32,000 nucleotides of DNA from Actinopolyspora sp. H202 (GCF_051225635.1 NZ_JBMIHH010000009.1:167835-199834); one strand, 5' to 3'; shown: positions 9,544 to 32,000, counted from the stretch's first letter. The notes: generated by a model from the letters alone, not told the origin. A program made the numbers and translations.

Positions 9544-9562
9544 GCTCTCGTGGTGAATCGAT

Positions 9563-10276: not shown

Positions 10277-10285
10277 GCGGGACAC

Positions 10286-10374: not shown

Positions 10375-11106
10375 GTGATGGTGTCCGAGGCCGCATCGAA
10401 CAGGCGTTCTCCCTGGCAGGAACGCATGCGCGAGCGGACAGCCAACGAGATCAGGCAGAGCGCGGCGAAGCTGCTCAACGAACAGGGCATCGACGCCGTG
10501 TCCATACGTGCTGTAGCAAGAGAGCTCGGCATGAGTTCACCCGCGATATACAGATATTTCAGTAACCACGAGGACCTCGTGAACGCGGTCATCATCGACG
10601 TGTTCGAGGACCTCAACAAGTACCTGAGCGACGAAGCGGACGCGGTCTCGAACGTGGAGGACAAGATCGTCACTGCCAGCTGGGCGTTTCGGGAGTGGGC
10701 CGTCGCGCATCAGCGCGAGTTCGAGCTGATCCTGCATCATCCGCTTCCGCCTCGGATTCCCGAGGAAGTGGTCAACGCCCGGTGGAAGTTCGGGGCCACG
10801 TTCATGCAGCTGTTCGCCAGGCTCTGGTACGAGCGCGGTTACGCCACTCCCGCTCCGGAGGACATGACCGAGCAGCAGCACACCGTGGTCGAACGCTTCC
10901 GCTCGAACACCGGGGGAGCTTTCGATCTCCCCCCTGAGGCGTTGCTGGTCTTCATCCGCAACTGGAGCAAGCTCTACGGTGTGGTCTCGATGGAGGCCAT
11001 GGGGCAGAACACCATGATGGGCGACGCCGCCAACCTGGTGTTCGACATGGAACTGGCGGAGATGGGCGACGCTTTGGGAGTGCCCCGACGGCCCCCGCAC
11101 AAATGA
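10375..11106 (+). CDS. TetR/AcrR-family transcriptional regulator
   Basis: The N-terminal helix-turn-helix is RERTANEIRQSAAKLLNEQGIDAVSIRAVARELGMSSPAIYRYFSNHEDL (TetR_N signature). The C-terminal ligand-binding region is alpha-helical. The start is GTG 10375 or ATG 10378. Confidence 0.85.
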   Translation: MMVSEAASNRRSPWQERMRERTANEIRQSAAKLLNEQGIDAVSIRAVARELGMSSPAIYRYFSNHEDLVNAVIIDVFEDLNKYLSDEADAVSNVEDKIVTASWAFREWAVAHQREFELILHHPLPPRIPEEVVNARWKFGATFMQLFARLWYERGYATPAPEDMTEQQHTVVERFRSNTGGAFDLPPEALLVFIRNWSKLYGVVSMEAMGQNTMMGDAANLVFDMELAEMGDALGVPRRPPHK

Positions 11107-11143
11107 GTGGTCGGCAGGTCGAACACGACTGGCCCGCTGGCCG

Positions 11144-11173
11144 CACTGCTCCTGGCGGGCTCCCGGAGCAGTG
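11144..11173. terminator. Hairpin between convergent TetR and membrane-protein genes
   Basis: A 9-bp stem cactgctcc (11144-11152) / ggagcagtg (11165-11173) encloses a 12-nt loop. No T-tract follows. Confidence 0.35.
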
Positions 11174-11250
11174 TCGGGCAAAGTCCCGAGCGGACGATGC
11201 GATCCCAGCGGTCCGAGTCCCGCGGGCCACCAGGTGCCGGAGTGCTCAGC

Positions 11251-11694
11251 TCAGGCGATCAGCAGGCCGATCCCGAGCGTGACGACTCCCAGCGCCAGAA
11301 TCGCGGCACCGAGCCAAACCACGGCGATCATGCCGTTGGGCCGTGTCACGTCCCGACCCGCCGAGGACAGATAGAACCCGAGGGGCATCAACACGGCGGC
11401 CACCGGAACGCCGAGCCTCGCCACCCAGCCGAACGCACCGTCGACAGCCGCCGCGTCCGCCAGTATCAGGCATACCAGACTCAACGTGACCAGCATGCCC
11501 GCGTGTCCGTGCATGGCACGTGCGAACGCTCGTTGGAAATCGGTCATGGGAACATCACCGCGGACGATGCGCGAGACGAACCATCCGCCGAACTCGATCG
11601 TGACGATCGTCAGCAGGACTACTCCCGCGATGTACTGCGATTCGGGACTCAAGGCCAGGGTGGACAACTCTGCTGCGCTCCTCTGTGAATCCAT
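11251..11694 (-). CDS. Small integral membrane protein (about 4 TM), function unknown
   Basis: The 147-aa protein has four hydrophobic stretches: YIAGVVLLTIVTIEFGGWFV, AGMLVTLSLVCLILA, LGVPVAAVLMPLGFYL and MIAVVWLGAAILALGVVTLGIGLLIA. Third-position GC is high. I recognise no family. Confidence 0.6.
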   Translation of the reverse strand: MDSQRSAAELSTLALSPESQYIAGVVLLTIVTIEFGGWFVSRIVRGDVPMTDFQRAFARAMHGHAGMLVTLSLVCLILADAAAVDGAFGWVARLGVPVAAVLMPLGFYLSSAGRDVTRPNGMIAVVWLGAAILALGVVTLGIGLLIA

Positions 11695-11969
11695 TGCGGA
11701 ACTTGCTCGTGTGGTGGACCGATCCGCACGGTGTGCGAAAGCCCCGCTTTCGCTGCCGCGAGCTCGTGGTGGCTCACGAGCTTCGCCGGGTGGGCGTCAC
11801 GCGAGTCGAGGTGGTCCGAGCCGCCTCGGTCGGTTACGTCCGCCGGAGGAATCATCGACACGTTTTTCGGTGTGCGGTCGTGGTGCAGCGCCGATTCCCG
11901 GTGGGGAACCGAGATACCGTAGTGGGGTTCGTACTTTCGGTTCTCCCGGTTTTCCCGCGGCACGGTCAC
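11649..11969 (-). CDS. Possible small hydrophilic His-rich protein (106 aa), speculative
   Basis: GTG 11969 overlaps the upstream gene's TGA in a GTGA junction. The first ~80 codons have high third-position GC by eye, and the product (VTVPRENRENRKYEPHYGISVPHRESALHHDRTPKN...) is hydrophilic. Its 3' end overlaps the next gene's start by 46 nt, and I recognise no family. Confidence 0.25.
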   Translation of the reverse strand: MTVPRENRENRKYEPHYGISVPHRESALHHDRTPKNVSMIPPADVTDRGGSDHLDSRDAHPAKLVSHHELAAAKAGLSHTVRIGPPHEQVPQWIHRGAQQSCPPWP

Positions 11970-12490
11970 TCTTGGTCGCGAACTTGTTGCGCGTTCTCCT
12001 GGTGCGCTTCGTAAGGGGTTTCCCGTGGGGCTACTGTGGTCGCTCCGGAGCCTTCCTGCACCGGTGCTTCGGTGAATCTACCCATACCGAATTCGGGCAT
12101 GTTCCGGTAGATGATGTGCATCTCATTCGGATGAGTGACGTAAGCTTCGTGGAAGACCCCGACACTGCCGTCCACGCCCACCCGGCGGTTGAAATTCCGC
12201 CACGCCGGCACGTGTTCCTGGTCGGCGCTGCGGGCATAGGCCATCAGATGGTCCATGTCCTTCCAGTACTCGACCAGCAGTGTCGTCCGCCCGAACCAGA
12301 CGTGGTAGCCCAACATGCCCAGCTCCGGTTGTTTCCGCAGCTCGACGAGCATCGGTGGCATCGCCAGGAAACTCGGCAACCAGCGGTGAATCTTCCACCA
12401 TTTGTTGATTCGCATTCCTATCAGGAAGACGACGGTACCGTCGGGTACGTCGGCGGTGCGTCGTCCACCAGTAGGGGAGTTGCGTCCCAT
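11966..12490 (-). CDS. DUF4188-like (monooxygenase-fold) protein
   Basis: The core VVFLIGMRINKWWKIHRWLPSFLAMPPMLVELRKQPELGMLGYHVWFGRTTLLVEYWKDMDHLMAYARSADQEHVPAWRNFNRRVG matches my recollection of DUF4188. I prefer the start ATG 12490 because GGAGG lies 8 nt upstream; ATG 12514 is the alternative. The tracked ORF extension to 12718 overlaps the ALDH gene and is rejected. Confidence 0.7.
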   Translation of the reverse strand: MGRNSPTGGRRTADVPDGTVVFLIGMRINKWWKIHRWLPSFLAMPPMLVELRKQPELGMLGYHVWFGRTTLLVEYWKDMDHLMAYARSADQEHVPAWRNFNRRVGVDGSVGVFHEAYVTHPNEMHIIYRNMPEFGMGRFTEAPVQEGSGATTVAPRETPYEAHQENAQQVRDQE

Positions 12491-12563
12491 CGCTGTCACC
12501 TCCGCGTTGGACATGCGTAATCGATTCCCGCGAGCACTTCGTCGTTTTGATTCCGGGGTATTC

Positions 12564-14045
12564 TCAGAAAACGAACGGTCTGCCCGGTTCGGTGACGGTC
12601 GTGGTTCGCCAGGTGCTGAATGTCTCGACACTCGCGACACCACCGAAACCTCCGCCGTTACCGGACGTCCCGAAACCACCGAACGGCAATCGTGGTTCAC
12701 TGTTGACGGTCTGGTCACCGATGTGCACCATTGCGGCCCGCAATCTCTGCGCGATGGCCCGGCCCCGCTCCACCGAACCGCTCCGTACAGCCGCGGCCAA
12801 GCCGTACTCGGAGGCGTTCGCCAGCCTCACCGCCTCACTCTCGTGGTCGACGATCGTCACCGCCGCGACGGGACCGAAGATCTCCTCGGCGAATGCCGGA
12901 CTCCCGTACGGCACGTCGGTCAGCACCGTCGGCGGGTAGTACGGCGCCGCCGCCTCCCTGGAGGTCAGCTTCCGTGCCCCCGCCTCGACCGAGGTGCTCA
13001 CGATGGACGTGATCCGGTCGTGCTGTGTCCGGTTGATGATCGGTCCGACCTGTGTGTTCGGATCGTGCGGATCACTCACCACCAGACTCTCCGCGCGTTC
13101 CACCAGCGCGTGCAGATAGTCATCGGCGACCGAGCGATGCACCAGATGGCGCCCGATCCCGATGCACAGCTGTCCCGAGTGGATGAAACTTCCCCAGGCC
13201 CCCGCCTCGGCTGCGCTCTTCGGCTCCGCGTCCTCCGTCACCAGGAACGGGTTGTTGCCGCCCAGTTCGAGCGAGCACTTCTTCAGGCCCGCGCCCGCGC
13301 GGCGTCCCACTTCACGTCCGGCCCGCGTAGAGCCGGTGAAGGACACGCCGGCGACCTCGGGAGCATCGATGATCGCACCGGCCGTCTCGGCACCGCCGGG
13401 CAGCACGGCGAACACGCCGTCGGGTACCCCCGCTTCCCGCAGCACGTGCGCGAGCAGCATCCCGCCGCTCACCGGGGTGTTCGGGTCGGGTTTGAGCAAC
13501 ACCGCGTTGCCCATGGCCAGTGCCGGTCCGACCGAGCGCGTCGCCAACAGCACCGGCATGTTCCAGGGAGTGATCACTCCCACCACTCCGAGCGGGACGC
13601 GATGAGCACCCGCCACCCTGCCCGGCACCGTGCTCTCCGCCTCCACGGCCGTGTCGAGCAACGCGAGTTCGGCGGCCTCGGCCAGCTCCGCCGCACCGCC
13701 CCCCAGTTCCCAACGAGCCTTCGACCACACCGCGCCGGACTCCGCGACCAGCCAACCGGCGAGCTCCTCCCGCTCCCGGGTCAGCAGCCCGGCCGCGCGC
13801 CGCAGCACCTCCGCCCTGCTCTCGGCCGGAAGAGACCACCATTCCCGCTGCGCCTCGGCGGCTCGCGCCGCGGTCTCCGCCGTTTGCGTGGCGTCCGGGA
13901 CGCCCACGGTCAGCAGCTTGCGGCCGCTCACCACCTCCGTGCTTTCCAGGCCGGAAGCGCCCGGTTGCCATCCGGCACCGAAGAAGTTGCCCTCCCAGGA
14001 AGCCACGGGCAGGACGGCCTGCCCGTGCGCGCCTTCGTGCTCCAT
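12564..14045 (-). CDS. NAD(P)+-dependent aldehyde dehydrogenase
   Basis: ALDH superfamily motifs are present: FTGSTRAGREVG, the catalytic Glu in LELGGNNPFLV, the catalytic Cys in GQLCIGIGRHLV, then EEIFGPV and PFGGFGTSGNG. RBS GGAGGGGG lies 7 nt upstream of ATG 14045. Confidence 0.9.
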   Translation of the reverse strand: MEHEGAHGQAVLPVASWEGNFFGAGWQPGASGLESTEVVSGRKLLTVGVPDATQTAETAARAAEAQREWWSLPAESRAEVLRRAAGLLTREREELAGWLVAESGAVWSKARWELGGGAAELAEAAELALLDTAVEAESTVPGRVAGAHRVPLGVVGVITPWNMPVLLATRSVGPALAMGNAVLLKPDPNTPVSGGMLLAHVLREAGVPDGVFAVLPGGAETAGAIIDAPEVAGVSFTGSTRAGREVGRRAGAGLKKCSLELGGNNPFLVTEDAEPKSAAEAGAWGSFIHSGQLCIGIGRHLVHRSVADDYLHALVERAESLVVSDPHDPNTQVGPIINRTQHDRITSIVSTSVEAGARKLTSREAAAPYYPPTVLTDVPYGSPAFAEEIFGPVAAVTIVDHESEAVRLANASEYGLAAAVRSGSVERGRAIAQRLRAAMVHIGDQTVNSEPRLPFGGFGTSGNGGGFGGVASVETFSTWRTTTVTEPGRPFVF

Positions 14046-14215
14046 CGCCGTTCCCCCTCCGAGCGGATCCCAGTCCTCGCGTTACCCACAGAACCCGCGT
14101 GAAGACCCGCTGATACATGAAACCGCGAAATCACCCGAGTCCCCACCGCACACGGCGGGCGTGTCCGGGTGGAAGCCGGTGGGGAAGCGGTCGTACGAGA
14201 AAAAATTCGCGGAAG

Positions 14216-14250
14216 GTGTATCTGTGTATCGCTCGCGGACTCTGTGTTGG
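14216..14250. promoter_or_regulatory. Direct-repeat motif cluster in the divergent ALDH / oxidoreductase intergenic region
   Basis: GTGTATC-t-GTGTATC occupies 14216-14230, and TCTGTGT recurs at 14221 and 14241, 20 nt apart. An A6 tract lies just upstream at 14200-14205. This is a candidate regulator binding site. Confidence 0.3.
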
Positions 14251-14289
14251 CGAAGTCCCCCTGACGAGGGTCCGGTTGAAAGGGGAACG

Positions 14290-15600
14290 GTGACACCACG
14301 TACAGCAGTGATCGGTGGCGGGATAGCCGGTTTGTCGGCTGCCTACCATCTCCGCGACGAAACGCACGTGACTCTGTTCGAGTCCGATTCCGCTCTTGGG
14401 GGACACGCCTACACCGTCGAAGTCGAGGAAAACGGCCGAACAACGGGGCTAGACACCGCGTTCATCGTTTACAACGCGCCGCACTACCCGAAGATCGCCA
14501 ACTTTTTCGACGAACTGGGAGTGGAGACACAGGATCACCCCGGAAGATTCAGCTTTTTCGATCTCGACACGGGGTCGAGCTACGTCTCGGACGACTTCGA
14601 GCTGACCGAGGAACAGGTCAGACAGCGTTATCCCGCGGACTTTCTGGAGCTGTGGCGCGAAGCCAAACGCTTCTACACGGAGTCTCCCAAGCACTTCATG
14701 CGCAAGCAGGCGGACATGCCGCTCGGCGAGTACTTGGACCGCAACGGTTACAGCGAGTCGTTCCGGTACGGTTTCGTCGTCCTGATAGCCACCGCCGCCT
14801 GGTCCGTGCCCGCCGACAAGATCTGGGAGATGCCCGCCAGCACCGTGATCGCGTTCTTCTTCGCGCACGGTGCGGAGGGGCTCGGCGGCAGGACCGTGCC
14901 CTGGCGCACGGTCACCGGCGGCAGCGTCAACTACGTACGCGCGGTGCGACGTGCCCTCGACGAGGCCGGCGCACAGGTGCGGCTGTCCTGTCCGGTGATG
15001 GGGGTGGAGGAGCGGCCCGACGGTGTCGCCGTTCGCACCGAACGCGGTGAGCTGGACGTTTTCGATCACGTCGTGCTCGCCACCCACGCCGATGACTCGA
15101 TGGCGATGCTGCGTCGACCGAATCCGCGGCAGCGCGAACTCGCGGCGGTGCGCTACCACCCCACCAGGGCGACACTGCACACCGACAGCGCTGTCATGCC
15201 CTCCGATCGCACGGTGTGGCGGAGCTGGAACTACGGCAGGGTCGGCGACGGTGAGGAGTACAACTCCTGGGTCGTGTACTACCTCAACGATCTGCAGCAG
15301 ATCCCCGGGGACACCGACTACTTCCTCACGCTCGACTCGGGCGTGCCGATCAGGGACGAGGCGGTGATCGAGGAGATCTCGTACCGTCACCCCGTTTTCG
15401 ACATCGGGGCTCGTCGGTTGCAACACGACATATATTCGATCAACGAGAGCAGTCGACGGGTAAAATTCGCCGGTTCCTATTTCCACTCCCGCAAGATGGG
15501 GCCGGACATCATCGGTTCGCACGAGTCGGCATTCGATTCCGGTCAGGCGGCCGCGGAATCCGTACTTCGATCGGTCGCCGAGCCGGAACCCGCGCGCTGA
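14290..15600 (+). CDS. FAD/NAD(P)-binding oxidoreductase, amine-oxidase-like fold (COG2907-type)
   Basis: The N-terminal dinucleotide fold is TAVIGGGIAGLSAAYHLRDETHVTLFESDSALGGHAYTV, followed by GLDTAFIVYNAPHYPKIANFFDELGV. The start is GTG 14290 with a purine-rich aaaggggaa upstream. The tracked ORF extension back to 13630 is antisense to the ALDH gene and is rejected. Confidence 0.85.
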   Translation: MTPRTAVIGGGIAGLSAAYHLRDETHVTLFESDSALGGHAYTVEVEENGRTTGLDTAFIVYNAPHYPKIANFFDELGVETQDHPGRFSFFDLDTGSSYVSDDFELTEEQVRQRYPADFLELWREAKRFYTESPKHFMRKQADMPLGEYLDRNGYSESFRYGFVVLIATAAWSVPADKIWEMPASTVIAFFFAHGAEGLGGRTVPWRTVTGGSVNYVRAVRRALDEAGAQVRLSCPVMGVEERPDGVAVRTERGELDVFDHVVLATHADDSMAMLRRPNPRQRELAAVRYHPTRATLHTDSAVMPSDRTVWRSWNYGRVGDGEEYNSWVVYYLNDLQQIPGDTDYFLTLDSGVPIRDEAVIEEISYRHPVFDIGARRLQHDIYSINESSRRVKFAGSYFHSRKMGPDIIGSHESAFDSGQAAAESVLRSVAEPEPAR

Positions 15601-15626
15601 AAGAAGAGCACCCACTCCTCCGAACC

Positions 15627-15635
15627 ATCTGTATC
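15627..15635. promoter_or_regulatory. ATCTGTATC motif upstream of the carrier-protein gene, related to the 14220-14230 motif
   Basis: ATCTGTATC (15627-15635) compares with ATCTGTGTATC (14220-14230). It sits in an 81-nt comparatively AT-rich spacer that also contains ctaga-gta-ctaga. Confidence 0.25.
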
Positions 15636-15681
15636 TAGAGTACTAGAACAGTTTTCGTCCATATCCGCAGGAGGGATACCT

Positions 15682-15957
15682 GTGTCCGAAAACGGGCAGA
15701 AAACGCTCACGGCCGAAGGTGTACGCGAATGGCTCGTGGAAAAAGTGGCGCATCGTCTCGACATCGGTGCCGACCAGATAGATGTCAACCAGTACTTCGA
15801 CGAATTCAACCTCGATTCGACGGAGGCGCTGGTCCTCTCCGGGGAGTTGGAGAACTGGCTCGGTTTCGAGCTGGAGACCACCGCCCTGTGGTATCACCCG
15901 ACGATCGCCGAACTGTCCGAGTACATCGTGGAAGTACGTGACGCGAATGCGGCCTGA
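15682..15957 (+). CDS. Discrete acyl/peptidyl carrier protein (phosphopantetheine-binding)
   Basis: The 91-aa protein carries the attachment motif FNLDSTEALVLSGELENWLG and the C-terminal helix WYHPTIAELSEYI. RBS AGGAGG lies 7 nt upstream of GTG 15682. Confidence 0.8.
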   Translation: MSENGQKTLTAEGVREWLVEKVAHRLDIGADQIDVNQYFDEFNLDSTEALVLSGELENWLGFELETTALWYHPTIAELSEYIVEVRDANAA

Positions 15958-16831
15958 CTCCCCCCGGCCGCTGATTCGACGGGTCGATGAGCGGACCGGT
16001 GCCGAACACCCGCTGGTGCTGGTGCACCCCGGCGCGCTGCGTGCCGACGTCTACGGGCGGATCGGTGAGAACCTCCCCGAGGACCGAAGTCTGCACGTGA
16101 TCGACATGGAGGCGATCGACGAGTACTACGCCGCGGCGTTCGGTCAGTGGTACGGCGACGTCTCGGTGGAGAGCCTGGCCACCACCGTAATCGGCGCGCT
16201 CCGCGACGCGATCGGCGAACCGGCCGGTGGTTGGACCCTCGCCGGGTGGTCCTTCGGCGGTGTGATCGCGCACTCCGCGGCGGGCATGCTCGATGCCTCG
16301 GAACCGCCCGAGCGGTTGGTGCTGCTGGACAGCATCGCGCCGGTCCCCGGCTACCTCCGTGCTCCTGACGAGGAGTTGGAACCCGAACTGGTGCTGCCCT
16401 GGTTCGGGTTCTATCTGGGAGCCAGGCGTGGTGTGGACATCCCGGAAGCCGACTACTCCGATGTCGACCTCGTCGACGGTCTGCGACGACTGCTCGAACT
16501 GGCGATCGAGGCCGGCGCGCTGCCCTCCGGAACGACCTACCCCGGCCTCCGCAAGGTCTTCGACACCTACAACGCCGGACTGCTGCGCAACAACCGCATC
16601 ACCCGGGGACACCGCCCGATCGCCTGCCGCGCGCCGGTCACGCTGGTTCGGCCGCGCTCGGGATTGCTGGACACGCCACGACCTCTGGGTTGGGAACAAC
16701 TCCACGACGACGTCGACGTGGTGCGTTGTCCCGGAAACCACTACTCGATGCTCAGCGAGCACGAGCCGGCGAGCCTGATCGCCTCGGCACTCGTCGAACC
16801 GCGGTCCCGGGCTCTCGGAGAACCCGCCTGA
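15947..16831 (+). CDS. Alpha/beta-hydrolase thioesterase (PKS/NRPS TE-type)
   Basis: PLVLVHPGALRADVY is followed by the nucleophile elbow LAGWSFGGVIAH (GxSxG) and the C-terminal His motif CPGNHYSMLSEH. ATG 15947 overlaps the carrier-protein gene by 11 nt; GTG 15938 is an alternative start. Confidence 0.8.
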   Translation: MRPDSPRPLIRRVDERTGAEHPLVLVHPGALRADVYGRIGENLPEDRSLHVIDMEAIDEYYAAAFGQWYGDVSVESLATTVIGALRDAIGEPAGGWTLAGWSFGGVIAHSAAGMLDASEPPERLVLLDSIAPVPGYLRAPDEELEPELVLPWFGFYLGARRGVDIPEADYSDVDLVDGLRRLLELAIEAGALPSGTTYPGLRKVFDTYNAGLLRNNRITRGHRPIACRAPVTLVRPRSGLLDTPRPLGWEQLHDDVDVVRCPGNHYSMLSEHEPASLIASALVEPRSRALGEPA

Positions 16832-16898
16832 ACTCCCCACCCGATCCGCCGAAAACCAACGGGCACGCCCGATCGCCCGTCTACCGCTGGGAAGCAAC

Positions 16899-19800
16899 AT
16901 GCGACAGGACGAGCACGCGAGCACACGGCTCGGCGACACGCCGATCGCGATTGTCGGACTAGGCGCGCTGTACCCGCGTTCGGGAGACCTACGCGAATTC
17001 TGGAGCAACGTCGTCGAGGCACGGGACTGCATCGAGGAGGTTCCCGAGAGTCACTGGAGTATCGCCGATTACTACGATCCCGATCCGACCGCGCCGGACA
17101 AGACCTACAGCAAGCGCGGCGGATTCATCCCGACGGTGCCGTTCAACCCGATGGAGTTCGGGTTGCCACCCAACACGCTCGAAGTCACCGACGTGTTGCA
17201 GCTGCTTAGCCTGGTGGTGGCCAAGCAGACACTGCACGACGCCGGTGCCGCCGACATGTCCCGGGAGCACAAGGATCGGACCGGGGTCGTTCTCGGTATC
17301 ACCGGGGCGAACTCGCTGACCCAACCGCTGGCGACGAGGCTACAGACCCCCGTCCTCAAGGAAGTGGTGCGTAGCTGCGGACTCGACGACACCGCCGCCG
17401 AGGAGATCGCGGACAAGTTCACCAAGGCGTTCGCGCCCTGGGAGGAGAACTCCTTTCCGGGAATGCTCGGCAATGTGGTCGCGGGGCGTATCACGAACCG
17501 TTTCGATCTGGGCGGAACCAACTGCACCATCGACGCCGCCTGTGCCAGCTCGCTCGCGGCCGTACGCATGGCCGTGGACGAGCTGGTCTCCGGGCGTGCG
17601 GACATGATGGTCACCGGTGGGTGCGACGCGGAGAACACCATCCTGATGTATCTGTGCTTCTCCAAGACGCCCGCACTGTCCAAGACCGACCACATCCGTC
17701 CGTTCGACGACTCCTCCGACGGCACGCTCATCGGCGAGGGCATGGGGATGCTCGCGCTGAAACGTCTCGACGACGCGGAGCGCGACGGGGACCGCATCTA
17801 CAGTGTGCTGCGCGGGATCGGCTCCTCCAGTGACGGCCGGTTCAAGAGCATCTACGCCCCTCGCGAGGACGGGCAGGTCACCGCGCTGAACCGCGCCTAT
17901 ACCGACGCCGGGTTCGGTCCGGAGAAGGTCGGGCTGCTGGAGTGCCACGGCACCGGCACCGCGGTGGGGGACCTCACGGAGCTCACGGCGCTGGGCAGGC
18001 TCTTCTCCGGCGGTGAACGTTCCCAGTTCGCGGCCGTCGGCAGCGTCAAGTCCCAGATCGGCCACACCAAGGCCGCGGCCGGGGCGGCCGGACTGATCAA
18101 GACGTCGCTGGCGCTGCACCACAAGGTGCTGCCGCCCACCATCAACGTGGAAACCCCCCGTGCGGACGCCGATTTCGAGAACTCGCCGTTCTACGTCAGC
18201 GGCCGTACCCGCCCGTGGGTGTTGGAGCCCGAACGCGAACGCCGTCGTGCCGGGGTCTCCTCGTTCGGGTTCGGCGGGACCAATTTCCACTGCGTTCTCG
18301 AAGAGCACACTCCCGACGCGGACGATCTCGCGGTGCTTCACCCGGCCTGCCGGGTTCACTTCTGGCACGCCGCCTCGACCGCTGAACTCGCCGATTCGCT
18401 GCTGGAGGACGCGGCTCCGGACGATCCCGACGGGGAGATTCCGAGCACCGACGCCAGGGTGGCGATCGTCGCCCGAACCCAGGATGAGCTCGACGAGCTC
18501 CGGCAAGACGTGGCCGATAAGCTGTGCTCCGGTTCGCAAGGCGAGCCGGGGCCGTTGCCCAACGGTGTGCATTTCCGCTCGGAGGGCGGGGACCCCGGCA
18601 GAGTGGCGGCGTTGTTCGCCGGTCAGGGCAGCCAGTACGTCGGTATGGGGGAGCGGGCCGCGATCTGTCTTCCCCCCGTCCGTGCCGGGTTCGACGCCGC
18701 GAGCACGGCGGGGGACGCCGCCGCTCCGCTGAGTGGGGCGGTGTTCCCGCCGCCCGCCTTCGACAAGGCCACCGCCGAACGGCAGCAGGAGACGCTGCGG
18801 CGCACGGACAACGCGCAGCCCGCGATCGGTGCGTTGTCGGTGGGGCAGTACAACTACCTGCGGCACCTGGGATTCACCGCCGACGGCGCGATCGGGCACA
18901 GCTTCGGTGAGCTCACCGCCCTTTGGTGCGCGGGCAGCCTCTCGGAGGAGACGTTCCACCATCTCGCCCATCAGCGAGGCGGGGCCATGGCCGAGCGCGC
19001 CGACCCGGACGAGGACCCCGGAACGCTGGCCGCGATTCGGGTCGGGCGTGACCGGGTGGAGGAGCTGCTGGGTTCTCACCCCGATGTGACGTTGTGCAAC
19101 GACAACAGTCACGATCAAGTCGTCGTCGGCGGGAAGACCGCCGCTGTCGAGGCCTTCGTCGAACGGTGCCGCACGGAGGGGATCGGGGCACAGCTGCTCC
19201 CCGTGGCCGCGGCCTTCCACACGTCCTGTGTGGAGCACGCCGTGGAACGCTTCCGCGAGACGGTCCTGAGCAGTGATGTCTCCGCACCCGGGATACCGGT
19301 CTACGCGAACACGCGTGGCGCCGAGTACGGCGAGGACGTCGACAGCAACCGCTCCGTGCTCGTGGACCAGTTGATCAACCCGGTCGACTTCCGTGAGCGG
19401 ATCGAGCAGATGTACTCGCAAGGGTTCCGGACTTTCGTCGAGTTCGGCCCGAAATCCGTGCTCAGCGGTCTTGTGCGCTCCGTTCTCGCCGATCGCGCGG
19501 ACGTCGTCGTGCTCAGCGCCGACGCCGGTCCGAACTCGGACTCCGACTACTCGCTCAAGCAGCTCGCGGCACGGCTCGCGGTGCTGGGCATCCCGTTGCG
19601 GGGTTTCAACGACTTCACCGCGCGGAGCGAACCCGCTCCGGCTCCCACCGGGATGAACATTCCGCTGAACGGTGTGAACCATGTTTCCGAACGGCGTCGG
19701 GCCGAGTACCGCGAGGCGCTGAACAACGGTTACCGGATAACGCCACCGACCGCTCAGGACCTCCCGCACGACCGGGACGTCCGGCCCGATGTCTCCCCCG

Positions 19801-26100: not shown

Positions 26101-29100
26101 AAGGAGCTGACCGCGGCCGAACGGGACCTGCCGGACGTGATCACCACCGGAGGGGAGTGGGCAACCCCGGCCGGTAGCTACTGCACGGCCGATCCCATCG
26201 GAACCGGGAAGATCGCGTTCGTGTACCCGGGTGCCTTCACCGCCTATCCACGGGCGGGTGATGGCCTGTTCCGCCTGTTCCCGGGGCTGCTCGCCCGGTT
26301 CGAGAGCGGTTGTCGGCAACCGGGCCTGCGCTACAAACAGCGTGCGCTCTACCCCAGGGCGACCGGTGGTGTGGAGCGCGGGAAGTTGATGCGGCACGAG
26401 TCCGGGCTCATCGAGGACATCCCCACCATGCTCGCGCTGGGCACCAACCTGGCGGTGCTCCACACCCAGCTGCTGCGGGACGAGCTGGGGATCGTGCCGG
26501 ACGGTGCGTTCGGCTACAGCCTCGGCGAGAGCAGCATGCTGTTCGCCACCGGTGTCTGGGCCGAGTCCTCCCGGGACGACAGCGCGTTGACAGCAACCCC
26601 GCTCTTCAGGGACCAGCTGCGCGGGCCGAAGCGGCTGATCCGGAGAACCTGGGGAATCGACGACGAGACCCCGGACAGCGCGGTGTGGACGACGCGGGTG
26701 CTGCTGACCGCCCCGACATCGGTGCGCGCGGGCATGCACGGCCTCGACCGAGTGTTCCTCACCCACGTCAACACCCCGACCGAAGTGGTCGTCGCAGGTG
26801 CTCCGGAGCAGTGCGAGCGGTTGATCGAACGGCTCGGCTGCCAAGCGGCCAGGGCACCTGCCAACCACGTCATGCACAACTCGCTCGTGGACCCGGTGCT
26901 CTCGGAGCTCGCCGATCTGAATCGCTATCCGATGGGGGACGGTCCTGCTCCCGGAACGGAGCTGTTGTCCGGTTACACCGGCGGGCCGAGCGAGGTGTCC
27001 GATCCGGACGAGATCGCCTGGCGCATCGCGCGGACCCTGCGCGACACGGTCGACTTCGCCGCGCTGACCGAAACCGCACACGAACGGGGATACCGCTACT
27101 TCGTGGAGATGGGGCCAGCCGCGACCTGCACCAGGTGGATCGGCGAGACCCTGCGCGAGAAGCGCCACCTCGCCGTACCGATCGACAACCGGGGTAAGCA
27201 GGTCGGTGCTTCCGTGGCGAGGCTGCTGGCCCGACTCCACTCGCACGGCGTCGACATCGATCTGGCGAGGTTGTACCCGGCGGAGTCCGCGGAATCCGCG
27301 CGCGACGCCCTCACCGTAAGCGCGACCTGCGGCGGCGAATCGATCGTCGACCGGGTCGCCACCGCCTGCGCGGCGGTGCGTTCCGAGTCGAGCACGTGGA
27401 GGTACGGCATGTCCCCGGCGGCGGATTCCCCTTCGGGCACCGCGGGCACCGGAGCCATCGGCGGTGACGCGATAACCGAGGCCCCCTCACCAACCCGGTC
27501 ACCCTCGCTGTCCACCGGTGCCGAGGACGTGCTCTTCGAGGGCGACGGTTCGGACGGCAACGCGATTCTCGTGGAGGGTGAGCCGTTCGTGTATCCACCG
27601 GCGATACGGGAGCAACTGTCGAACGCGCGGACCCGACCCGTGCCGGACACACCCGCTGCCGTGGCGCCCGCCTCTTCGTCCCGGCCCGGAGAACCTCGTC
27701 CTCCCGCGAGTCCTGAGCGGACGGGTCAGCGTGCCGCCGCGGATGTCCCGGCGAGTCACATGAGTCTGCTGTCGCGGCAGATCGCCGAAGCGCACCGTGC
27801 CGCACTACGTGCCCAGGACGCGTTGTTGTGGGAGACGATGCGGCAGCTGGAGCCGGACACGCCCCCGCCCGCCGTCGACGACGGCGCCGAGCGGAGCTTC
27901 CACACCGGTGCGGTCGCCCGGACCGGACCGAGCGCGCCCACCCCCGTGCCGACCGCTCCCGACCGCGGCGGAGCTCCCGAGACGTCCCCCACCGTCGACA
28001 AGCCGATCCTGGACGAACGCGACCTGCTCGAATTCGCGGGCGGTTCCGTCGGCGAGGTGTTCGGTTCGCGATTCGCCGAGATCGACGCCTACCCGCGGCG
28101 TGTCCGGCTGCCCGAACCGCCCTACCTGTTCGTCAGCCGGGTCACGGAGCTGGCGGGCCGGACGGGGGTGTTCGAGCCGTCCTCCATCACCACCGAGTAC
28201 GACATCCCGCACGACGCCTGGTTCGCGGTGGACGGGTTGACCCCCTGCGCGGTGACGATCGAGGCGGGGCAGTGCGATCTCCTGCTGATCAGCTACCTGG
28301 GCATCGACTTCCACAACCGGGGAGAACGGGTTTACCGGCTGTTGGACAGCCGACTGGTCTTCCACGGTCCGCTGCCACGCGCGGGCCAGACGTTGCGCTA
28401 TCGGATCAACATCGATCGTTTCGTCTGGAACGACGGTTCGCTGTTGTTCTTCTTCAACTACCGCTGCTATGCCGACGACGAGCTGATCCTCGAACTGCTC
28501 GATGCCTGCGCAGGCTTTTTCACCAAGACCGAGCTGGACAACTCCATCGGTGTGGTGACCGGCGAGTCCGACCGACGGCGGCGTGCCGAGTTCACCGAGT
28601 CCTGGTTCAAACCGTTGGCCCGGACCCCGCGCACGGAGCTGTCCGACGCGGATCTTCGGCTGTTGACCGAGGGCAGGCGCGGCGAGGTGTTCGGCCCCGA
28701 GTGGGACCAGCACGCCGACGGCTGCAACCCCTCACTGCGGCTACCGGACGAGATGCTGCGGATGATCGACGAGATCCCGCTGATCGACCGTCTCGGCGGG
28801 CCGCGGTCCCTCGGAGAACTGACCGCCGTCAAGAACCTGGAGCCCGACGGCTGGTACTTCCGCTGCCACTTCACCGGTGACCCCGTGCTCGCGGGATCCA
28901 TGGTGGCCGAAGGCGCGGTCCAGCTGTTGCAGACCTACAGCTTGTACCTGGGTATGCACCTCGTCTTCCCGGATGCCGAGTTCCAGTCGGTGCCCGGGTT
29001 GGAGACCGAGGTCAAGGTGCGGGGACAGATCACACCGGAGACCTCGCGAATCCGGTACCACGCCGAGATCACCGAGTTGTCCATGCTGCCGCGCCCCACC

Positions 29101-30411
29101 GTGATCGCCGACATCGTGGTCTACGACGGGGAGAAACCGATCATCAGCATGCGCGACTTCGGTATCCAGGTCCGCGAGAAGCCCGGCACGCCCTATCGCC
29201 CCGAGCGAGGTGGTGTTCCCGAGTTCCTGGGCAGGCGCAATCATCGCGGTGAGGCGGCTTTCATCAACGAACTGCATCTCGCGCACGCTGCCAAGGGCGA
29301 TCTGGCCACCGCGATGGGCACCGAGTTCGAGATCTACGACAACCGCCGCGCGCCGCACATCCCCAACGGCGATTTCCAGTTCGTGGACAGGATCATGCGG
29401 CTGGACGGCACTCGGGGAGAGCTCACACCCGGCTCGACCATGGCCACCGAGTACGACAGCCCGCCCGAAGCCTGGTACTACCGGGACAACTCGCGTGCCG
29501 CGATGCCGAACTGCGTGTTCATGGAGACATCGCTGCAGGCGGCGATCCTGCTGGGGTACTACATCGGCGCCACGCTGGAGACACCGGAAGACGAGCTGTC
29601 CATCCGGAACCTGGACGGCAACGCCCGACTGGTCACCGACATGGACCTCCGGGGCAGGACCATCCGGCACGAGTCCGAACTGCTGTCGCACCAGACCGTG
29701 ACCGGAGCGACGTTGCAGAACTTCGGCTATCGGCTCTACGCCGACGACGTACTCGTCTACGAGGGCGAGTCGCTCTTCGGGTATTTCACCGCCGACGCGC
29801 TGTCGCAGCAGGTCGGTCTCGACGCCGGTCGCTACGTTCCACCCTGGTTGGACGAACAGCAGGGGAGCCGGGTCCGCACATTGCCGGTCCGAGCACGTGA
29901 CGAGTGGTTCCGGCCGGACCCCGAGAGCGGGTTGCGACTGGACGACGGGCACCTGCGGCTGGTCGACGAGGTGGACGTGGTCGACGGCGGAGGACGGTTC
30001 GGGGAGGGATACCTGCGCGGCCGTCGCGTGATCGACCCGGACGACTGGTACTTCAGCTGTCATTTTCACCGCGACCCGGTCATGCCCGGTTCGTTGGGCG
30101 TGGAAGCCGTGATCCAGGCCCTGCAGCTCCACGTCATCGATTCCGGACTCGCCTCCGGCATGTCGGGGGCCTACTTCGCCATCCCCACCGACGTGGCGAT
30201 GAGCTGGAAATATCGCGGACAGATTCTCCGCGGCGACCGCGAGATGACCTTCGATCTGCACGTCAAACGGGTGCACCGGGAGAACGGGAGGTTGCTGGTG
30301 ATCGCCGACGCGAACGTGTGGAAACCCGGACTGCGCATCTACGAACTGCATGACGTGGCCGTCGAGGTCCGTGCCGAATCCGCCGCCGAGCACTCGAATA
30401 CCGAGAGGTGA
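23113..30411 (+). CDS. pfaC: PfaC-like PUFA-synthase subunit with fused AT: KS-CLF-AT-linker-(FabA-like DH)x2, 2432 aa
   Basis: GTG 23113 overlaps the upstream TGA (GTGA). In-frame ATG 23131 is an alternative start. Domains are listed below. Confidence 0.93.
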   Translation: MTRSDAMSGQANTGQELAVVGTACLLPGANTPEQFWRTIASGSDFRVEGGTETFGTGPEIPGGWGDEEHRITTTRGGFVTEPDIDLDGLGIPEQRLRELDDVVRWPLHTVRAALADAGMAEADERLARTGLVLGNYSFPTKSSVELCVPLVRSMVDEGMRRADIPVPGGEPTGHGVAAENLRPSGLPATVVGSAFGLGGPTLALDAACSSALYGVSLARDYLGTGKADVMLAGAVCAPDPLLIHLSFSDLGAYPEDGRSVPFDAGSNGILTGQGAGILVLKRLADAERDGDRIHAVVSSIGLTNDGAGKHLLSPSETGQIGAYEHAYRDVSPDSVDYIECHATGTPLGDATELRGISAFFGERVPWLGSVKGNIGHLLTVAGFSSMLKAVLMLREGVVPPLPGLDEVRTPEGGEGAAARVVHDETGNPAGATGPSRIGVSAFGFGGTNAHLLLDAHDGRSSTSPDRTQHAEAVTVVGLGARAAAATSPTELHRALHHGANLLRELPEPRWYGSDAISDSPAAVPVEQGYMASLEVAASTYRIPPAELGHFNPQHLALFQAAEQALDEAGLHAPGPGTSATDLPPRRVAVVVAMEMDPRTHSHRARFDIGAHVRAECARAGVDIGADEMDSLEAAVRGAVHDRIGSNEVLSYIGNIMASRISASRNLTGPSFTVSSDETAGARAIEVAQLLLCDPSVEGVLVGGVDLAASAENTAADARLTNEAGVTALPNGDGAAAVLLTRERQAEEWPRRYATVDGLHLRTERHPGADSVRAGARAALAEADIDRTELDYVELVGSSTEELTGLISGIASLVPRPSDGDPTCVLGESASLTGNTRSAAVLLSLVRVCVSMYLAELPVSSARAVEAASAVSDLDSSALCVNTGTEPWLRSATDTDRRAMLSVVGRTGTLAGTVAHLLLRGADVRSDEVSIDWQRREEALILPITGRDGTELARRAAVLRDELTANPARQVIRSAIDAADRRGYRAVLVARNDSELVKELTAAERDLPDVITTGGEWATPAGSYCTADPIGTGKIAFVYPGAFTAYPRAGDGLFRLFPGLLARFESGCRQPGLRYKQRALYPRATGGVERGKLMRHESGLIEDIPTMLALGTNLAVLHTQLLRDELGIVPDGAFGYSLGESSMLFATGVWAESSRDDSALTATPLFRDQLRGPKRLIRRTWGIDDETPDSAVWTTRVLLTAPTSVRAGMHGLDRVFLTHVNTPTEVVVAGAPEQCERLIERLGCQAARAPANHVMHNSLVDPVLSELADLNRYPMGDGPAPGTELLSGYTGGPSEVSDPDEIAWRIARTLRDTVDFAALTETAHERGYRYFVEMGPAATCTRWIGETLREKRHLAVPIDNRGKQVGASVARLLARLHSHGVDIDLARLYPAESAESARDALTVSATCGGESIVDRVATACAAVRSESSTWRYGMSPAADSPSGTAGTGAIGGDAITEAPSPTRSPSLSTGAEDVLFEGDGSDGNAILVEGEPFVYPPAIREQLSNARTRPVPDTPAAVAPASSSRPGEPRPPASPERTGQRAAADVPASHMSLLSRQIAEAHRAALRAQDALLWETMRQLEPDTPPPAVDDGAERSFHTGAVARTGPSAPTPVPTAPDRGGAPETSPTVDKPILDERDLLEFAGGSVGEVFGSRFAEIDAYPRRVRLPEPPYLFVSRVTELAGRTGVFEPSSITTEYDIPHDAWFAVDGLTPCAVTIEAGQCDLLLISYLGIDFHNRGERVYRLLDSRLVFHGPLPRAGQTLRYRINIDRFVWNDGSLLFFFNYRCYADDELILELLDACAGFFTKTELDNSIGVVTGESDRRRRAEFTESWFKPLARTPRTELSDADLRLLTEGRRGEVFGPEWDQHADGCNPSLRLPDEMLRMIDEIPLIDRLGGPRSLGELTAVKNLEPDGWYFRCHFTGDPVLAGSMVAEGAVQLLQTYSLYLGMHLVFPDAEFQSVPGLETEVKVRGQITPETSRIRYHAEITELSMLPRPTVIADIVVYDGEKPIISMRDFGIQVREKPGTPYRPERGGVPEFLGRRNHRGEAAFINELHLAHAAKGDLATAMGTEFEIYDNRRAPHIPNGDFQFVDRIMRLDGTRGELTPGSTMATEYDSPPEAWYYRDNSRAAMPNCVFMETSLQAAILLGYYIGATLETPEDELSIRNLDGNARLVTDMDLRGRTIRHESELLSHQTVTGATLQNFGYRLYADDVLVYEGESLFGYFTADALSQQVGLDAGRYVPPWLDEQQGSRVRTLPVRARDEWFRPDPESGLRLDDGHLRLVDEVDVVDGGGRFGEGYLRGRRVIDPDDWYFSCHFHRDPVMPGSLGVEAVIQALQLHVIDSGLASGMSGAYFAIPTDVAMSWKYRGQILRGDREMTFDLHVKRVHRENGRLLVIADANVWKPGLRIYELHDVAVEVRAESAAEHSNTER
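23158..24477 (+). other. KS domain of the PfaC-like protein
   Basis: The motifs are LALDAACSSALYGV (Cys208, TGC 23734-23736), ECHATGT, KGNIGHLLTVAG and FGFGGTNAHLLLD. Confidence 0.9.
24526..25887 (+). other. Chain-length-factor (KS-like, non-catalytic) domain
   Basis: A second KS-like fold follows the KS. The position that aligns by eye with the active-site Cys reads TVSSDETAGARAIE and contains no Cys. Confidence 0.75.
26200..27147 (+). other. Acyltransferase domain (PfaB-like) embedded in the PfaC-like protein
   Basis: The nucleophile elbow is GAFGYSLGESSML (Ser1136, AGC 26518-26520). The N-terminal element reads KIAFVYPGAFTAYP in place of GQGSQ. Confidence 0.8.
28006..29172 (+). other. 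FabA-like dehydratase/isomerase module 1 (pseudo-hot-dog plus catalytic hot-dog)
   Basis: It opens with ILDERDLLEFAGGSVGEVFGSRFAEIDAYPRRVRLPEPPYLFVSRV. The FabA active-site motif is WYFRCHFTGDPVLAGSMVAEG (His1919, CAC 28867-28869). Confidence 0.85.
29230..30408 (+). other. FabA-like dehydratase/isomerase module 2
   Basis: It opens with FINELHLAHAAKGDLATAMGTEFEIYDNRRAPHIPNGDFQFVDRI. The active-site motif is WYFSCHFHRDPVMPGSLGVEA (His2317, CAT 30061-30063). Confidence 0.85.
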
Positions 30412-32000
30412 TCGCAGTGACCGTCACCGAACCGACACTCCGGTCCGGCCCTCGGGCCGATCCGGCAGGAATCAACGCCGTACTCGGCGAACTCGACAAA
30501 CCGTGCTACGTGATCCGCACTCACGAGGGCCCCGCGGTGTGCGACGAGCCCGTGGCCGACGATTCCCGGATCGTGGCCGCCATCGGCCCACTGCCCGCCG
30601 AGCGGCTGGGGTCGCCGCGTTTCCGTGCCGACCACGGTGTCCGATACGCCTACGTCGGTGGAGCGATGGCGGGCGGCATCGCACAGGAGGACTTCGTCAT
30701 CGCCCTCGCCCGTGCGGGGTTCCTCGGCTCGTTCGGGGCGGCCGGTCTGCTGCCCGATCGGATCGAACGCGCGCTGCGGCGGTTCGCCGCGGAGATTCCG
30801 GGACTTCCCTACGCGGTCAACCTGATCCACAGTCCCAGTGAGGAAGCACTCGAACGGCAAACCGTCGAGCTGCTGCTCCGGCACGGGGTGCGTCGCGTGG
30901 AGGCCTCGGCCTTCATGGAACTGACCGAGCACATCGTGCGGTACCGGGTCGCCGGGCTCTCCGCGAACCAACGTGGGGAACCGCTGATCGCCAACAGGGT
31001 GATCGCGAAGGTTTCGCGTACCGAAGTCGCCGAGCGCTTCATGCGTCCCCCGCCCGTCGAGCTGGTGCGGCGGCTGCTCAACGAGGGGACGATCACCCGG
31101 CAGCAGGCAGAGTTGGCGGCGAGCGTGCCGATGGCCGACGACATCACGGTGGAGGCCGATTCGGGCGGTCACACCGACCGTCGTCCGATGACCGCGCTGT
31201 TCCCGGCGGTGGTACGCACCAGGGAGACCGTGGCGAGCGAGTTCGCGCCCGCGGCGCGGCTGCGGATCGGCGCGGCAGGCGGGATCGGCACCCCACACGC
31301 CGCCGCGGCCGCGTTCGCGCTCGGTGCCGACTACGTGGTGACCGGCTCGGTGAACCAGTCCTGTGTGGAGGCCGGAACCTCGGAGTCCGCGAAGGAACTG
31401 CTCGCCAAGGCGGGAGTGGCCGACTGCGAGATGGCTCCCGCCGCGGACATGTTCGAACTGGGCGTCGAATTGCAGGTGCTGCGCAAGGGAACGCTCTTTC
31501 CGATGCGGGCGAAACGGCTGTTCGAGCTGTACCGCTCGTACACCGGCATCGAATCGCTGTCCGCCGAGGACAGGGAAAAGCTGGAGAAGCAGATCCTGCG
31601 TAAACCGGTGGCCGAGGTCTGGGAGGAGGTGACCGAGTACTTCGAGCGCAGGGATCCCGAGCAGCTGCGCCGTGCCGAACAGGATCCCAAGCGCAGGATG
31701 GCGCTGATCTTCCGCTGGTATCTCGGCATGGCCTCGCGCTGGGCCTCGGTCGGTGACGACACCCGCACACCCGACTACCAGATCTGGTGCGGCCCCGCGA
31801 TGGGCGCCTTCAACGACTGGGTGGCCGACACCTATCTGGCCGATCCCGGCAACCGGCGCGTCGCCGACGTGGCCGGACACATCATGCGAGGTGCCTGCCT
31901 GGTCGGCCGCGCCAATCAGCTCCGGCAGGCGGGTGTCCATCTCCCCGCGTCCTGCTCCGACTACCGCCCCCGCCGACCCGTCCACGCGGAGGAACGATGA
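30408..32000 (+). CDS. pfaD: PfaD-family enoyl reductase (FMN/TIM-barrel, nitronate-monooxygenase-like)
   Basis: GTG 30408 overlaps the upstream TGA (GTGA). PfaD-type motifs are FRADHGVRYAYVGGAMAGGIAQEDFVIALARAGFLGSFGAAGL, AVNLIHSP, ITVEADSGGHTD and ADYVVTGSVNQ. The stop TGA is at 31998-32000, exactly the last three bases of the window. Confidence 0.92.
   Translation: MIAVTVTEPTLRSGPRADPAGINAVLGELDKPCYVIRTHEGPAVCDEPVADDSRIVAAIGPLPAERLGSPRFRADHGVRYAYVGGAMAGGIAQEDFVIALARAGFLGSFGAAGLLPDRIERALRRFAAEIPGLPYAVNLIHSPSEEALERQTVELLLRHGVRRVEASAFMELTEHIVRYRVAGLSANQRGEPLIANRVIAKVSRTEVAERFMRPPPVELVRRLLNEGTITRQQAELAASVPMADDITVEADSGGHTDRRPMTALFPAVVRTRETVASEFAPAARLRIGAAGGIGTPHAAAAAFALGADYVVTGSVNQSCVEAGTSESAKELLAKAGVADCEMAPAADMFELGVELQVLRKGTLFPMRAKRLFELYRSYTGIESLSAEDREKLEKQILRKPVAEVWEEVTEYFERRDPEQLRRAEQDPKRRMALIFRWYLGMASRWASVGDDTRTPDYQIWCGPAMGAFNDWVADTYLADPGNRRVADVAGHIMRGACLVGRANQLRQAGVHLPASCSDYRPRRPVHAEER

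Follow-up and report, generated by a model that had tools for sequence, protein, structure and literature searches.

The 32,000-nt stretch of Actinopolyspora sp. H202 DNA considered here (the window) is recognized by sequence comparison as holding the left portion of a pfa-like secondary-lipid cluster of Type H, an orphan cluster of actinobacteria that is orthologous to the pfa cluster of Saccharopolyspora erythraea. Its product is, with a probability that we put at about 0.55, a specialised long-chain unsaturated acid that would be further desaturated by flavoenzymes and released by a thioesterase (TE). Domain and motif matches show that four coupled genes encode what is predicted to be a complete iterative enzyme set of the polyunsaturated fatty acid (PUFA) synthase type. 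Comparison of related loci further shows that the genes for a flavoprotein, a free-standing acyl carrier protein (ACP), the TE, long acyl-CoA dehydrogenase (ACAD)-like proteins and an acetyl-CoA carboxylase (ACC) appear to form, together with the synthase, a conserved and mostly overlapping gene string.

Core synthase genes

The window was examined by listing of open reading frames (ORFs), Pfam and NCBIfam scans and motif checks. The four core genes occupy positions 16899-32000 on the plus strand and overlap by GTGA at all three junctions. The first of them, PfaA1 (16899-20837, +), carries Pfam matches to a ketosynthase (KS; 16938-18152), a malonyl-type acyltransferase (AT or MAT; 18612-19493) and a single ACP domain (20583-20792), scores 1161 bits with the omega_3_PfaA model TIGR02813 (cutoff 1010) and contains the motifs DAACASS, HGTGT, GHSFG, AAFH and LGIDSI. 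PfaA2 (20834-23116, +) follows with a ketoreductase (KR; 21491-22144, Pfam KR) and a polyketide synthase (PKS)-type dehydratase (DH; 22367-23077, Pfam PS-DH), and aligns to the C-terminal third of TIGR02813 (model positions 1852-2567); the KS-MAT-ACP-KR-DH content of PfaA is present, divided between two coupled ORFs.

PfaBC (23113-30411, +) opens with a KS (23161-24321; amino acids 17-403, with Cys205), followed by a second KS-like domain (24619-25683) that has SSDETAG where DxACSS is expected and is read as a chain-length factor (CLF) because the active-site Cys is absent. Next comes a PfaB-like AT (26488-27177; amino acids 1126-1355, serine motif GYSLG), the surrounding region of which (amino acids 980-1385) matches the pfaB_fam model TIGR02816 with E 1e-30 and 107 bits, below the cutoff of 144. 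The two FabA-type domains, DH1 (~28741-29150) and DH2 (29944-30348), both keep the catalytic His (CHF), and the FabA model NF003509 gives 185 bits against a cutoff of 124. PfaBC thus has the KS-CLF and two FabA-like DH domains of a PfaC-type protein, and its KS-CLF part finds its closest PDB match in 6RIW (chain named ORF10, E 9.5e-143), which we take to be the Moritella marina PfaC KS-CLF didomain. The protein ends 20 amino acids past the second FabA domain and carries no 1-acylglycerol-phosphate acyltransferase (AGPAT), as had been said in the initial annotation, which was made from the window alone. The last gene (30408-32000, +) encodes a PfaD-type FMN enoyl reductase, scoring 639 bits with TIGR02814 (cutoff 449) and matching the PfaD structures 6LKC and 4YX6 with E ~1e-174. 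The description of the region as a pfa-type megasynthase locus is borne out by TIGR02813, TIGR02814 and the KS-CLF-FabA2 arrangement, and its four coupled genes and their domains proved real, with coordinates essentially as first given, in the ORFs, the Pfam and NCBIfam matches and the GTGA overlaps.

All catalytic domains are homologous to those of the marine gammaproteobacterial pfaABCDE systems (Shewanella, Photobacterium, Moritella), with PfaD reaching E 1e-174 to the Shewanella PfaD structures and PfaA1 passing TIGR02813. The window nevertheless departs from these systems in that PfaA is split, PfaB is fused into PfaC, one ACP stands in place of 4-6 and pfaE is missing, whereas flavoenzymes, a TE, an ACP and an ACC are additional in the cluster. 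Multiple tandem ACPs, a distinguishing Pfa trait, are lacking: PfaA1 has one PP-binding domain only, a re-scan of its C-terminal 379 amino acids again returned one ACP, LGIDSI occurs once, and the second carrier protein of the window is the product of the free ACP gene. Shulse and Allen left single-ACP clusters inside the pfa family (PMC3098273). In the PfaA proteins of the relatives described below, the number of tandem ACPs ranges from 1 (25 loci) up to 5. Since orthologous clusters carry between one and five, the single ACP is a variable character rather than a family trait, and the initial suggestion that it marks low flux does not hold as a family property.

One copy of a known actinomycete family

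Gene neighbourhoods were sampled by scanning one genome per species with the KR-DH protein, which has a relative in at least 579 loci. The best 80 of these, actinomycetes throughout, were searched with the window proteins for co-conservation, and the counts given below refer to those among the 80 with visible upstream sequence (63 loci) or visible downstream sequence (64 loci). The relatives' genes were compared by all-against-all ORF clustering, as ORF picking based on G+C at third codon positions was too crude in the lower-GC accessory region. The KR-DH protein (20834-23116) has a 100% match in a protein of Actinopolyspora sp. H202 and is 74% identical to the protein of Actinopolyspora mortivallis and 50-51% identical to the S. 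erythraea homologue; Glycomyces, many Streptomyces, Kutzneria and Nocardia have relatives of it at ~50% identity.

Type H of Shulse and Allen (2011) combines a pfaA that is split and a pfaBC (KS-CLF-AT-DH2) that is fused; its listed carriers are S. erythraea NRRL 2338 and Agrobacterium vitis S4 (PMC3098273), and the window has both features. Its gene order is common to the A. mortivallis and S. erythraea loci. In S. erythraea the synteny includes the accessory genes, with the flavoprotein, free ACP, TE, KS-AT-ACP, KR-DH, KS-CLF-AT-DH2 and PfaD all present at identities of 44-68%; the S. erythraea locus differs upstream, where genes for a LuxR regulator and an LCM-family methyltransferase replace those for the aldehyde dehydrogenase (ALDH), the af470-like protein, the membrane protein and the TetR regulator of the window. 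The same arrangement of core domains is found in Type D of Psychroflexus torquis, which comprises pfaA1 (KS-AT-ACP5), pfaA2 (KR), pfaBC (KS-CLF-AT-DH2) and pfaD and makes arachidonic acid and eicosapentaenoic acid (EPA) (PMC3098273). The likeness, confined to domain order, lies in the split pfaA and fused pfaBC; Type D differs in having five tandem ACPs instead of one and in belonging to a Bacteroidetes lineage, and its description mentions no flavoprotein, free ACP, TE, ACAD or ACC set (PMC3098273).

The architecture is accordingly not new, and the locus is one more copy of a known actinomycete family, present in hundreds of species and on record since 2007-2011, to which it adds no new architecture. 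Because the S. erythraea order is the order of the window, the combination of domains and genes that had at first been taken for novel was already catalogued, without a product, as Type H (and, by domain order, as Type D; PMC3098273). Actinomycete pfa-like clusters were flagged as early as 2002 in the Streptomyces coelicolor genome paper (cited in PMC3098273) and typed in 2011, and a 2026 survey of hybrid clusters combining PKS, nonribosomal peptide synthetase (NRPS) and pfa genes treats other families. In S. erythraea, SACE_0019 (the ACP), SACE_0022 and SACE_0023 are published pfa genes, and in an industrial strain, Px, the ACP gene is interrupted by a nonsense mutation and the KR-DH gene by a frameshift (PMC3359211), from which it follows that the cluster is dispensable.

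A copy of the cluster resides on a 562-kb mobilizable plasmid of Streptomyces globosus (locus L090, NZ_CP030864.1, 227716-268993), where a complete type I-E CRISPR-Cas operon is located ~10 kb away. That the cluster is distributed patchily may be due to its carriage on plasmids.

The flavoprotein upstream of the synthase

The gene at 14290-15600 (+) encodes an FAD flavoprotein of the amine-oxidase/CrtI superfamily (Pfam Amino_oxidase), the JGI family name of which is 'predicted NAD/FAD-binding protein'. It is related to the protein at the UfaD position of Azospirillum oryzae (BLASTP, 39% identity over 433 amino acids, E 5e-83), and homology to such UfaD-position flavoproteins of the amine-oxidase/CrtI fold extends over the full length; full-length homologues also occur on proteobacterial plasmids at 35-40% identity. 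The A. oryzae operon begins with the flavoprotein gene, continues with genes for a DUF1365 protein, a cyclopropane fatty acid (CFA) synthase-family protein and a DUF3833 protein, and adjoins a ChrR anti-sigma/sigma pair. In the RSP1091-1087 operon of Rhodobacter sphaeroides, RSP1091 is UfaD, an O2-dependent acyl desaturase whose product, a conjugated 10t,12t diene, is formed from a 12-trans monoene, and RSP1090 is UfaO, a DUF1365 protein (PMC7380195).

Because the layout of the A. oryzae operon matches that of RSP1091-1087, the gene at 14290-15600 is read as encoding a UfaD-like long-acyl-chain dehydrogenase. The comparison, in which RSP1091 is represented by the syntenic Azospirillum protein, suggests that the window flavoprotein is an acyl-chain dehydrogenase or desaturase of this kind. 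Both proteins share the amine-oxidase/phytoene-desaturase FAD fold, but UfaD acts on phospholipid-bound 11-methyl-18:1, whereas the substrate of the window flavoprotein is presumably thioester-bound. Of the first reading of this gene as an FAD/NAD(P) oxidoreductase, the flavoprotein assignment stands and the generic function gives way to the UfaD-like one.

The AlphaFold2 model of the flavoprotein (pLDDT 91) has as its closest solved fold LkcE, the lankacidin amide oxidase/Mannich cyclase (PDB 6F32, 6F7L), with a Foldseek TM score of 0.80 and 26-27% identity; phmmer relates the two with E 1.5e-26, and the remaining amine oxidases reach TM scores of 0.60-0.68. LkcE acts on a long acyclic polyketide chain. 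Polyenoic fatty acid isomerase, a family considered for the flavoprotein, was found neither among the PDB sequence hits nor among the top 50 fold hits and was set aside.

The flavoprotein gene lies upstream in 33 of the 63 loci, a frequency that is a lower bound because on the S. globosus plasmid the gene is found downstream, after two ACAD-like genes. Homologues of the flavoprotein are present in 25 Streptomyces plasmid records.

Free carrier protein, thioesterase and the mode of release

The free-standing ACP (15682-15957, +; 91 amino acids, Pfam PP-binding E 3e-11) is kept in 62 of the 63 loci, its S. erythraea equivalent being SACE_0019, and the NCBIfam stretch that it matches best is the Pks13 N-terminal ACP. 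An overlap of 11 nt joins its gene to that of the stand-alone TE (15947-16831, +), an alpha/beta hydrolase (PF00975) with GWSFG and GNH motifs which is present in 41 of the 63 loci. These frequencies, with that of the flavoprotein (33/63 upstream), uphold the original assignment of the flavoprotein, ACP and TE genes to the locus. In the comparison with solved structures, the closest relatives of the TE are the terminal type I TE domains of NRPS and PKS (4zxh at 9e-15, then NocB and DEBS) and not the editing type II enzymes.

The one Nocardia locus examined downstream, that of Nocardia sp. CA-107356, has an unsplit PfaA and no TE, and contains instead a stand-alone thioester reductase (TR; TIGR01746, 302 bits, cutoff 213) and a class III aminotransferase. 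The strongest evidence at hand for the TE as the release enzyme is this exchange for a TR and an aminotransferase. The proposal that the product leaves as a free acid gains support from it, as it does from the likeness to type I TEs. The exchange further suggests that the family diversifies at the head group, and the TR and aminotransferase of the sister clusters imply an aldehyde or amine head group there.

These genes bear directly on whether the cluster could be a genuine membrane PUFA synthase, making an EPA- or arachidonate-like methylene-interrupted PUFA for incorporation into phospholipids as Type D does in Psychroflexus. Such a role would fit the full catalytic set with its two FabA-type dehydratase/isomerase-like domains (NF003509, 185 bits, cutoff 124), the curated PUFA-synthase models passed by PfaA1 and PfaD, and the nearest structures, 6RIW (presumably Moritella PfaC) for KS-CLF and Shewanella PfaD for the enoyl reductase. 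It is also the role of Type D, with its equal split and fusion and its production of arachidonic acid and EPA (PMC3098273), and an EPA-like product was assumed by the S. erythraea annotators (PMC3359211). We nonetheless consider it quite unlikely, given that canonical PUFA synthesis has no place for the three additional conserved flavoenzymes, the free ACP or the hydrolytic TE, that replacement of the TE by a reductase and an aminotransferase in some relatives is incompatible with a membrane fatty acid, and that the synthase has one ACP only and no AGPAT or other lipid-transfer domain. Moreover, the production of PUFAs by actinomycetes with such clusters has not been shown (PMC3098273).

Dehydrogenase genes and probable carboxylase genes beyond the window

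The window ends on the pfaD stop codon, and its last four bases, ATGA (31997-32000, +), hold at the same time the ATG start of the next conserved gene, which encodes a long ACAD-like protein and lies outside the window. An identical 4-nt overlap joins pfaD to the ACAD-like gene in A. mortivallis and S. erythraea, and an ACAD-like gene directly follows pfaD in 61 of the 64 loci with visible downstream sequence. The locus boundary, which the initial annotation had left past 32000, is indeed to be sought there. Actinopolyspora sp. H202 itself has an ACAD-family protein of 590 amino acids (P0122).

What follows the first ACAD-like gene differs between lineages. In A. mortivallis, pfaD is followed by two ACAD-like genes (591 amino acids) and genes for a fused AccD-AccA protein (accA model, 339 bits, cutoff 319), a biotin carboxyl carrier protein (BCCP) and a biotin carboxylase; S. 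erythraea has the same series, with a fused carboxyltransferase, BCCP and biotin carboxylase, but one ACAD-like gene instead of two. Streptomyces sp. HK10 has two ACAD-like genes and then a gene for a phosphopantetheinyl transferase (PPTase) of the Sfp type. In Kutzneria, one ACAD-like gene is followed by genes for a SufS-like enzyme, an MMPL protein and an AlkB-like desaturase with rubredoxin, and in Nocardia sp. CA-107356, two ACAD-like genes precede those for an SRPBCC protein, the class III aminotransferase and the stand-alone TR. The AlkB-type FA_desaturase and rubredoxin genes of Kutzneria sp. CA-103260 (locus L087, 16108-17393), with the MMPL transporter gene, lie just downstream of the cluster, and this set hints at lineage-specific tailoring of a long-chain lipid.

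The ACAD-like proteins combine an ACAD core (residues ~42-383) with a C-terminal extension of ~200 amino acids, their length being comparable to that of VLCAD and ACAD9, and the listed PDB and NCBIfam matches are all to the ACAD family, mostly to ordinary dehydrogenases. In the simplest reading, they would dehydrogenate a long acyl thioester at the alpha,beta position. The two paralogues (looked at in P0122 and in locus L084, 10001-13548) share only 28% identity in A. mortivallis, a divergence compatible with a heteromeric pair. An ACAD-fold monooxygenase or a nitroalkane oxidase was also considered, prompted by an Asp found in place of the catalytic Glu.

Conservation of these post-assembly dehydrogenases is one of the points that could be made for a saturated or hydroxylated long-chain synthase resembling Azotobacter ars or cyanobacterial hgl, in which the FabA-type domains would only dehydrate, the ACAD- and UfaD-like enzymes would later add all unsaturation, and the chain, instead of leaving as a free acid, might become a building block in another pathway. 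Saturated C22-26 chains are the product of single-ACP pfa-like systems such as ars (PMC3098273), the free ACP is similar to the Pks13 loading ACP, and a further PKS is found near the Nocardia cluster. However, each FabA domain has kept its catalytic His and exceeds the cutoff of a bifunctional dehydratase/isomerase model, and neither the window nor the A. mortivallis and S. erythraea flanks contain a type III PKS, a glycosyltransferase or a condensing partner, so that we regard this reading as rather unlikely.

Proposed pathway and points against it

In the pathway that we favour, leading to a specialised unsaturated acid, the carboxylase would supply malonyl-CoA and the synthase, with its single ACP as the carrier, would build up a long acyl chain iteratively. 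Saturated stretches would come from the KR, PKS-type DH and enoyl reductase, and cis double bonds from the FabA-type DH pair. The ACAD-like and UfaD-like flavoenzymes would then add further double bonds, probably trans and conjugated, to the thioester-bound chain, after which the TE would hydrolyse the product to the free acid and a major facilitator superfamily (MFS) pump may export it. The family as a whole might make a specialised lipid scaffold with lineage-specific termini.

Several observations weigh against this pathway. The canonical catalytic Glu of the ACAD family, in YEG(T/S), is replaced by an invariant Asp, in F-(I/V)-D, in both ACAD-like paralogues, and ordinary alpha,beta-dehydrogenation is for this reason assumed rather than established. 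The partners of UfaD, namely the DUF1365 protein (UfaO) and the CFA-synthase-family methylase, are absent from the window and the related loci, and LkcE, the nearest solved structure to the flavoprotein, oxidises not a C-C but an amide C-N bond; it does so in an amide-bearing polyketide, whereas the window encodes no nitrogen source. The free ACP is a candidate carrier during further desaturation, a role that is a guess, and of the five downstream contexts examined, only two contain ACC genes. A dedicated pfaE or Sfp-type PPTase is likewise missing: as first reported, none is visible in the window, Pfam recognizing none among the ORFs scanned. Beyond pfaD, where the initial annotation proposed to look for one, none lies within the 10 kb after the first ACAD-like gene of A. 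mortivallis and S. erythraea; Streptomyces sp. HK10 has one. Finally, our literature searches found no published product for any member of the actinobacterial pfa family, in keeping with the earlier statement that the product is not assignable.

The left flank

On the other side of the flavoprotein gene, and directly divergent from it, lie two minus-strand genes that occupy the same position in both Actinopolyspora genomes. One encodes an ALDH (12564-14045, -; Pfam Aldedh E 3e-131), which reaches the cutoff of no NCBIfam model and is 74% identical to its A. mortivallis counterpart. The other encodes a Monooxy_af470-like protein (PF13826, formerly DUF4188; 11966-12490/12514, -, the start being probably 12490 or 12514) with a Pfam E value of 1e-39 and 136 bits against a cutoff of 25, and is 90% identical to an A. 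mortivallis gene of 174 amino acids. Among the 63 loci with visible upstream sequence, the ALDH occurs in none and the af470-like protein in none, the pair being seen only in the two Actinopolyspora genomes. The divergent operon thus lacks the co-conservation that had been envisaged for it, and the two genes are, on this distribution, an apparently Actinopolyspora-only and peripheral addition whose link to the pathway is hypothetical.

The pair might still be an integral late stage, in which cleavage of a polyene would be followed by oxidation of the resulting aldehyde to yield a polyene dicarboxylic acid. Fma-ABM/af470, after which PF13826 is named, breaks the conjugated dodecapentaenoyl chain of prefumagillin by oxidative cleavage (PMC7020470), and because this namesake cleaves a conjugated polyene, the sequence of cleavage and aldehyde oxidation is chemically coherent with a conjugated-chain mechanism. 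Further points in favour of such a stage are the location of the pair, which in both Actinopolyspora genomes directly adjoins the flavoprotein gene in divergent orientation, and, in 13 Streptomyces loci, the presence at the equivalent position of a small protein that matches DUF3291 weakly (E 7e-4, short of the gathering score) and that BLASTP relates weakly to the af470-like protein (E 7e-6). Yet the profile comparison of these two proteins with hhalign gives a probability of only 19%, the af470-like protein, for all its PF13826 membership, is not co-conserved with the synthase (0/63 other loci, as for the ALDH), the ALDH fits no specific NCBIfam model, and adjacency in two congeneric genomes is weak evidence. 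We therefore judge it improbable that the two genes form part of the pathway in this way.

Of the remaining genes to the left, those for the MFS transporter, the sigma-70 factor and the membrane protein recur patchily beside the cluster in other genera. The membrane protein (11251-11694, -; 147 amino acids) matches no family in Pfam or NCBIfam; its A. mortivallis counterpart shares 89% identity with it, and proteins encoded beside the cluster in Sphaerisporangium and Kutzneria share 66%. A TetR-family regulator (10375-11106, +; Pfam TetR_N and TetR_C_33) has an equivalent position in A. mortivallis (75%) and adjoins the cluster in Sphaerisporangium (37%). A 12-nt inverted repeat, CACTGCTCCTGG / CCCGGAGCAGTG, with a 6-nt loop (11144-11173) lies between the convergent genes for the TetR regulator and the membrane protein and is probably a terminator hairpin shared by the two. 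In the divergent intergenic regions, scans for promoters, terminators and inverted repeats gave nothing above chance.

The MFS transporter (7551-9110, -; Pfam MFS_1) is 51-55% identical to the product of an MFS gene divergent from the cluster in 13 Streptomyces loci and is a possible cluster-associated exporter. Similarly, the sigma-70 family factor (region 2; 9563-10180, -; Pfam Sigma70_r2) is a possible cluster regulator, with homologues encoded beside the cluster in Sphaerisporangium (46%), S. erythraea (41%) and Kutzneria (34%). A sigma-70 factor by the cluster was observed in four genera (window, 9563-10180; L085, 15567-16085; L087, 17475-17975; L011, 2211-2732), and the UfaD-type operons of Azospirillum and Rhodobacter are likewise tied to a sigma/ChrR pair; no anti-sigma gene was recognized beside the sigma gene of the window. 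The G+C content is 0.62-0.67 over 8001-16000, from the MFS to the TE gene, compared with 0.67-0.71 in the pfa genes and the left flank, and the lower value could mark a different history of the accessory genes.

The region 1-7519 looks unrelated to the cluster. It encodes a truncated Ser/Thr kinase (3-992), a Cpn60/GroEL-family chaperonin (1283-2986), a GH84 beta-N-acetylglucosaminidase (3355-5433), a PspC-domain protein (5468-5722, -), a SUFU-like protein (5874-6524, -) and an AAA ATPase (6641-7513), the last antisense to a longer ORF with no family hit.

Implications for the family

A more far-reaching proposal, which we offer as speculative, is that the family makes an undescribed lipid class. 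In such lipids, a chain built by the PUFA synthase would receive conjugated trans bonds from the UfaD-like and Asp-type ACAD-like enzymes while bound to its carrier, and the head groups would be lineage-specific, with a free acid formed via the TE in the present cluster and an amine formed via the reductase and aminotransferase in Nocardia; in Actinopolyspora, the af470-like protein and the ALDH could cleave the chain to a polyene diacid.

The locus itself would not surprise a specialist. What the comparison of relatives contributes is the definition of a conserved accessory set, consisting of the UfaD-like flavoprotein, the free ACP, the long ACAD-like proteins and a TE or TR, and the realization that the whole pathway comprises more than the window, as the dehydrogenase gene or genes and probably the ACC genes lie beyond it. 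The points open to experiment are the UfaD-like, ACAD-like and ACP set, the TE/TR exchange and the dedicated ACC, and for these the S. erythraea overproducer with null ACP and KR-DH genes is a ready-made comparison strain.

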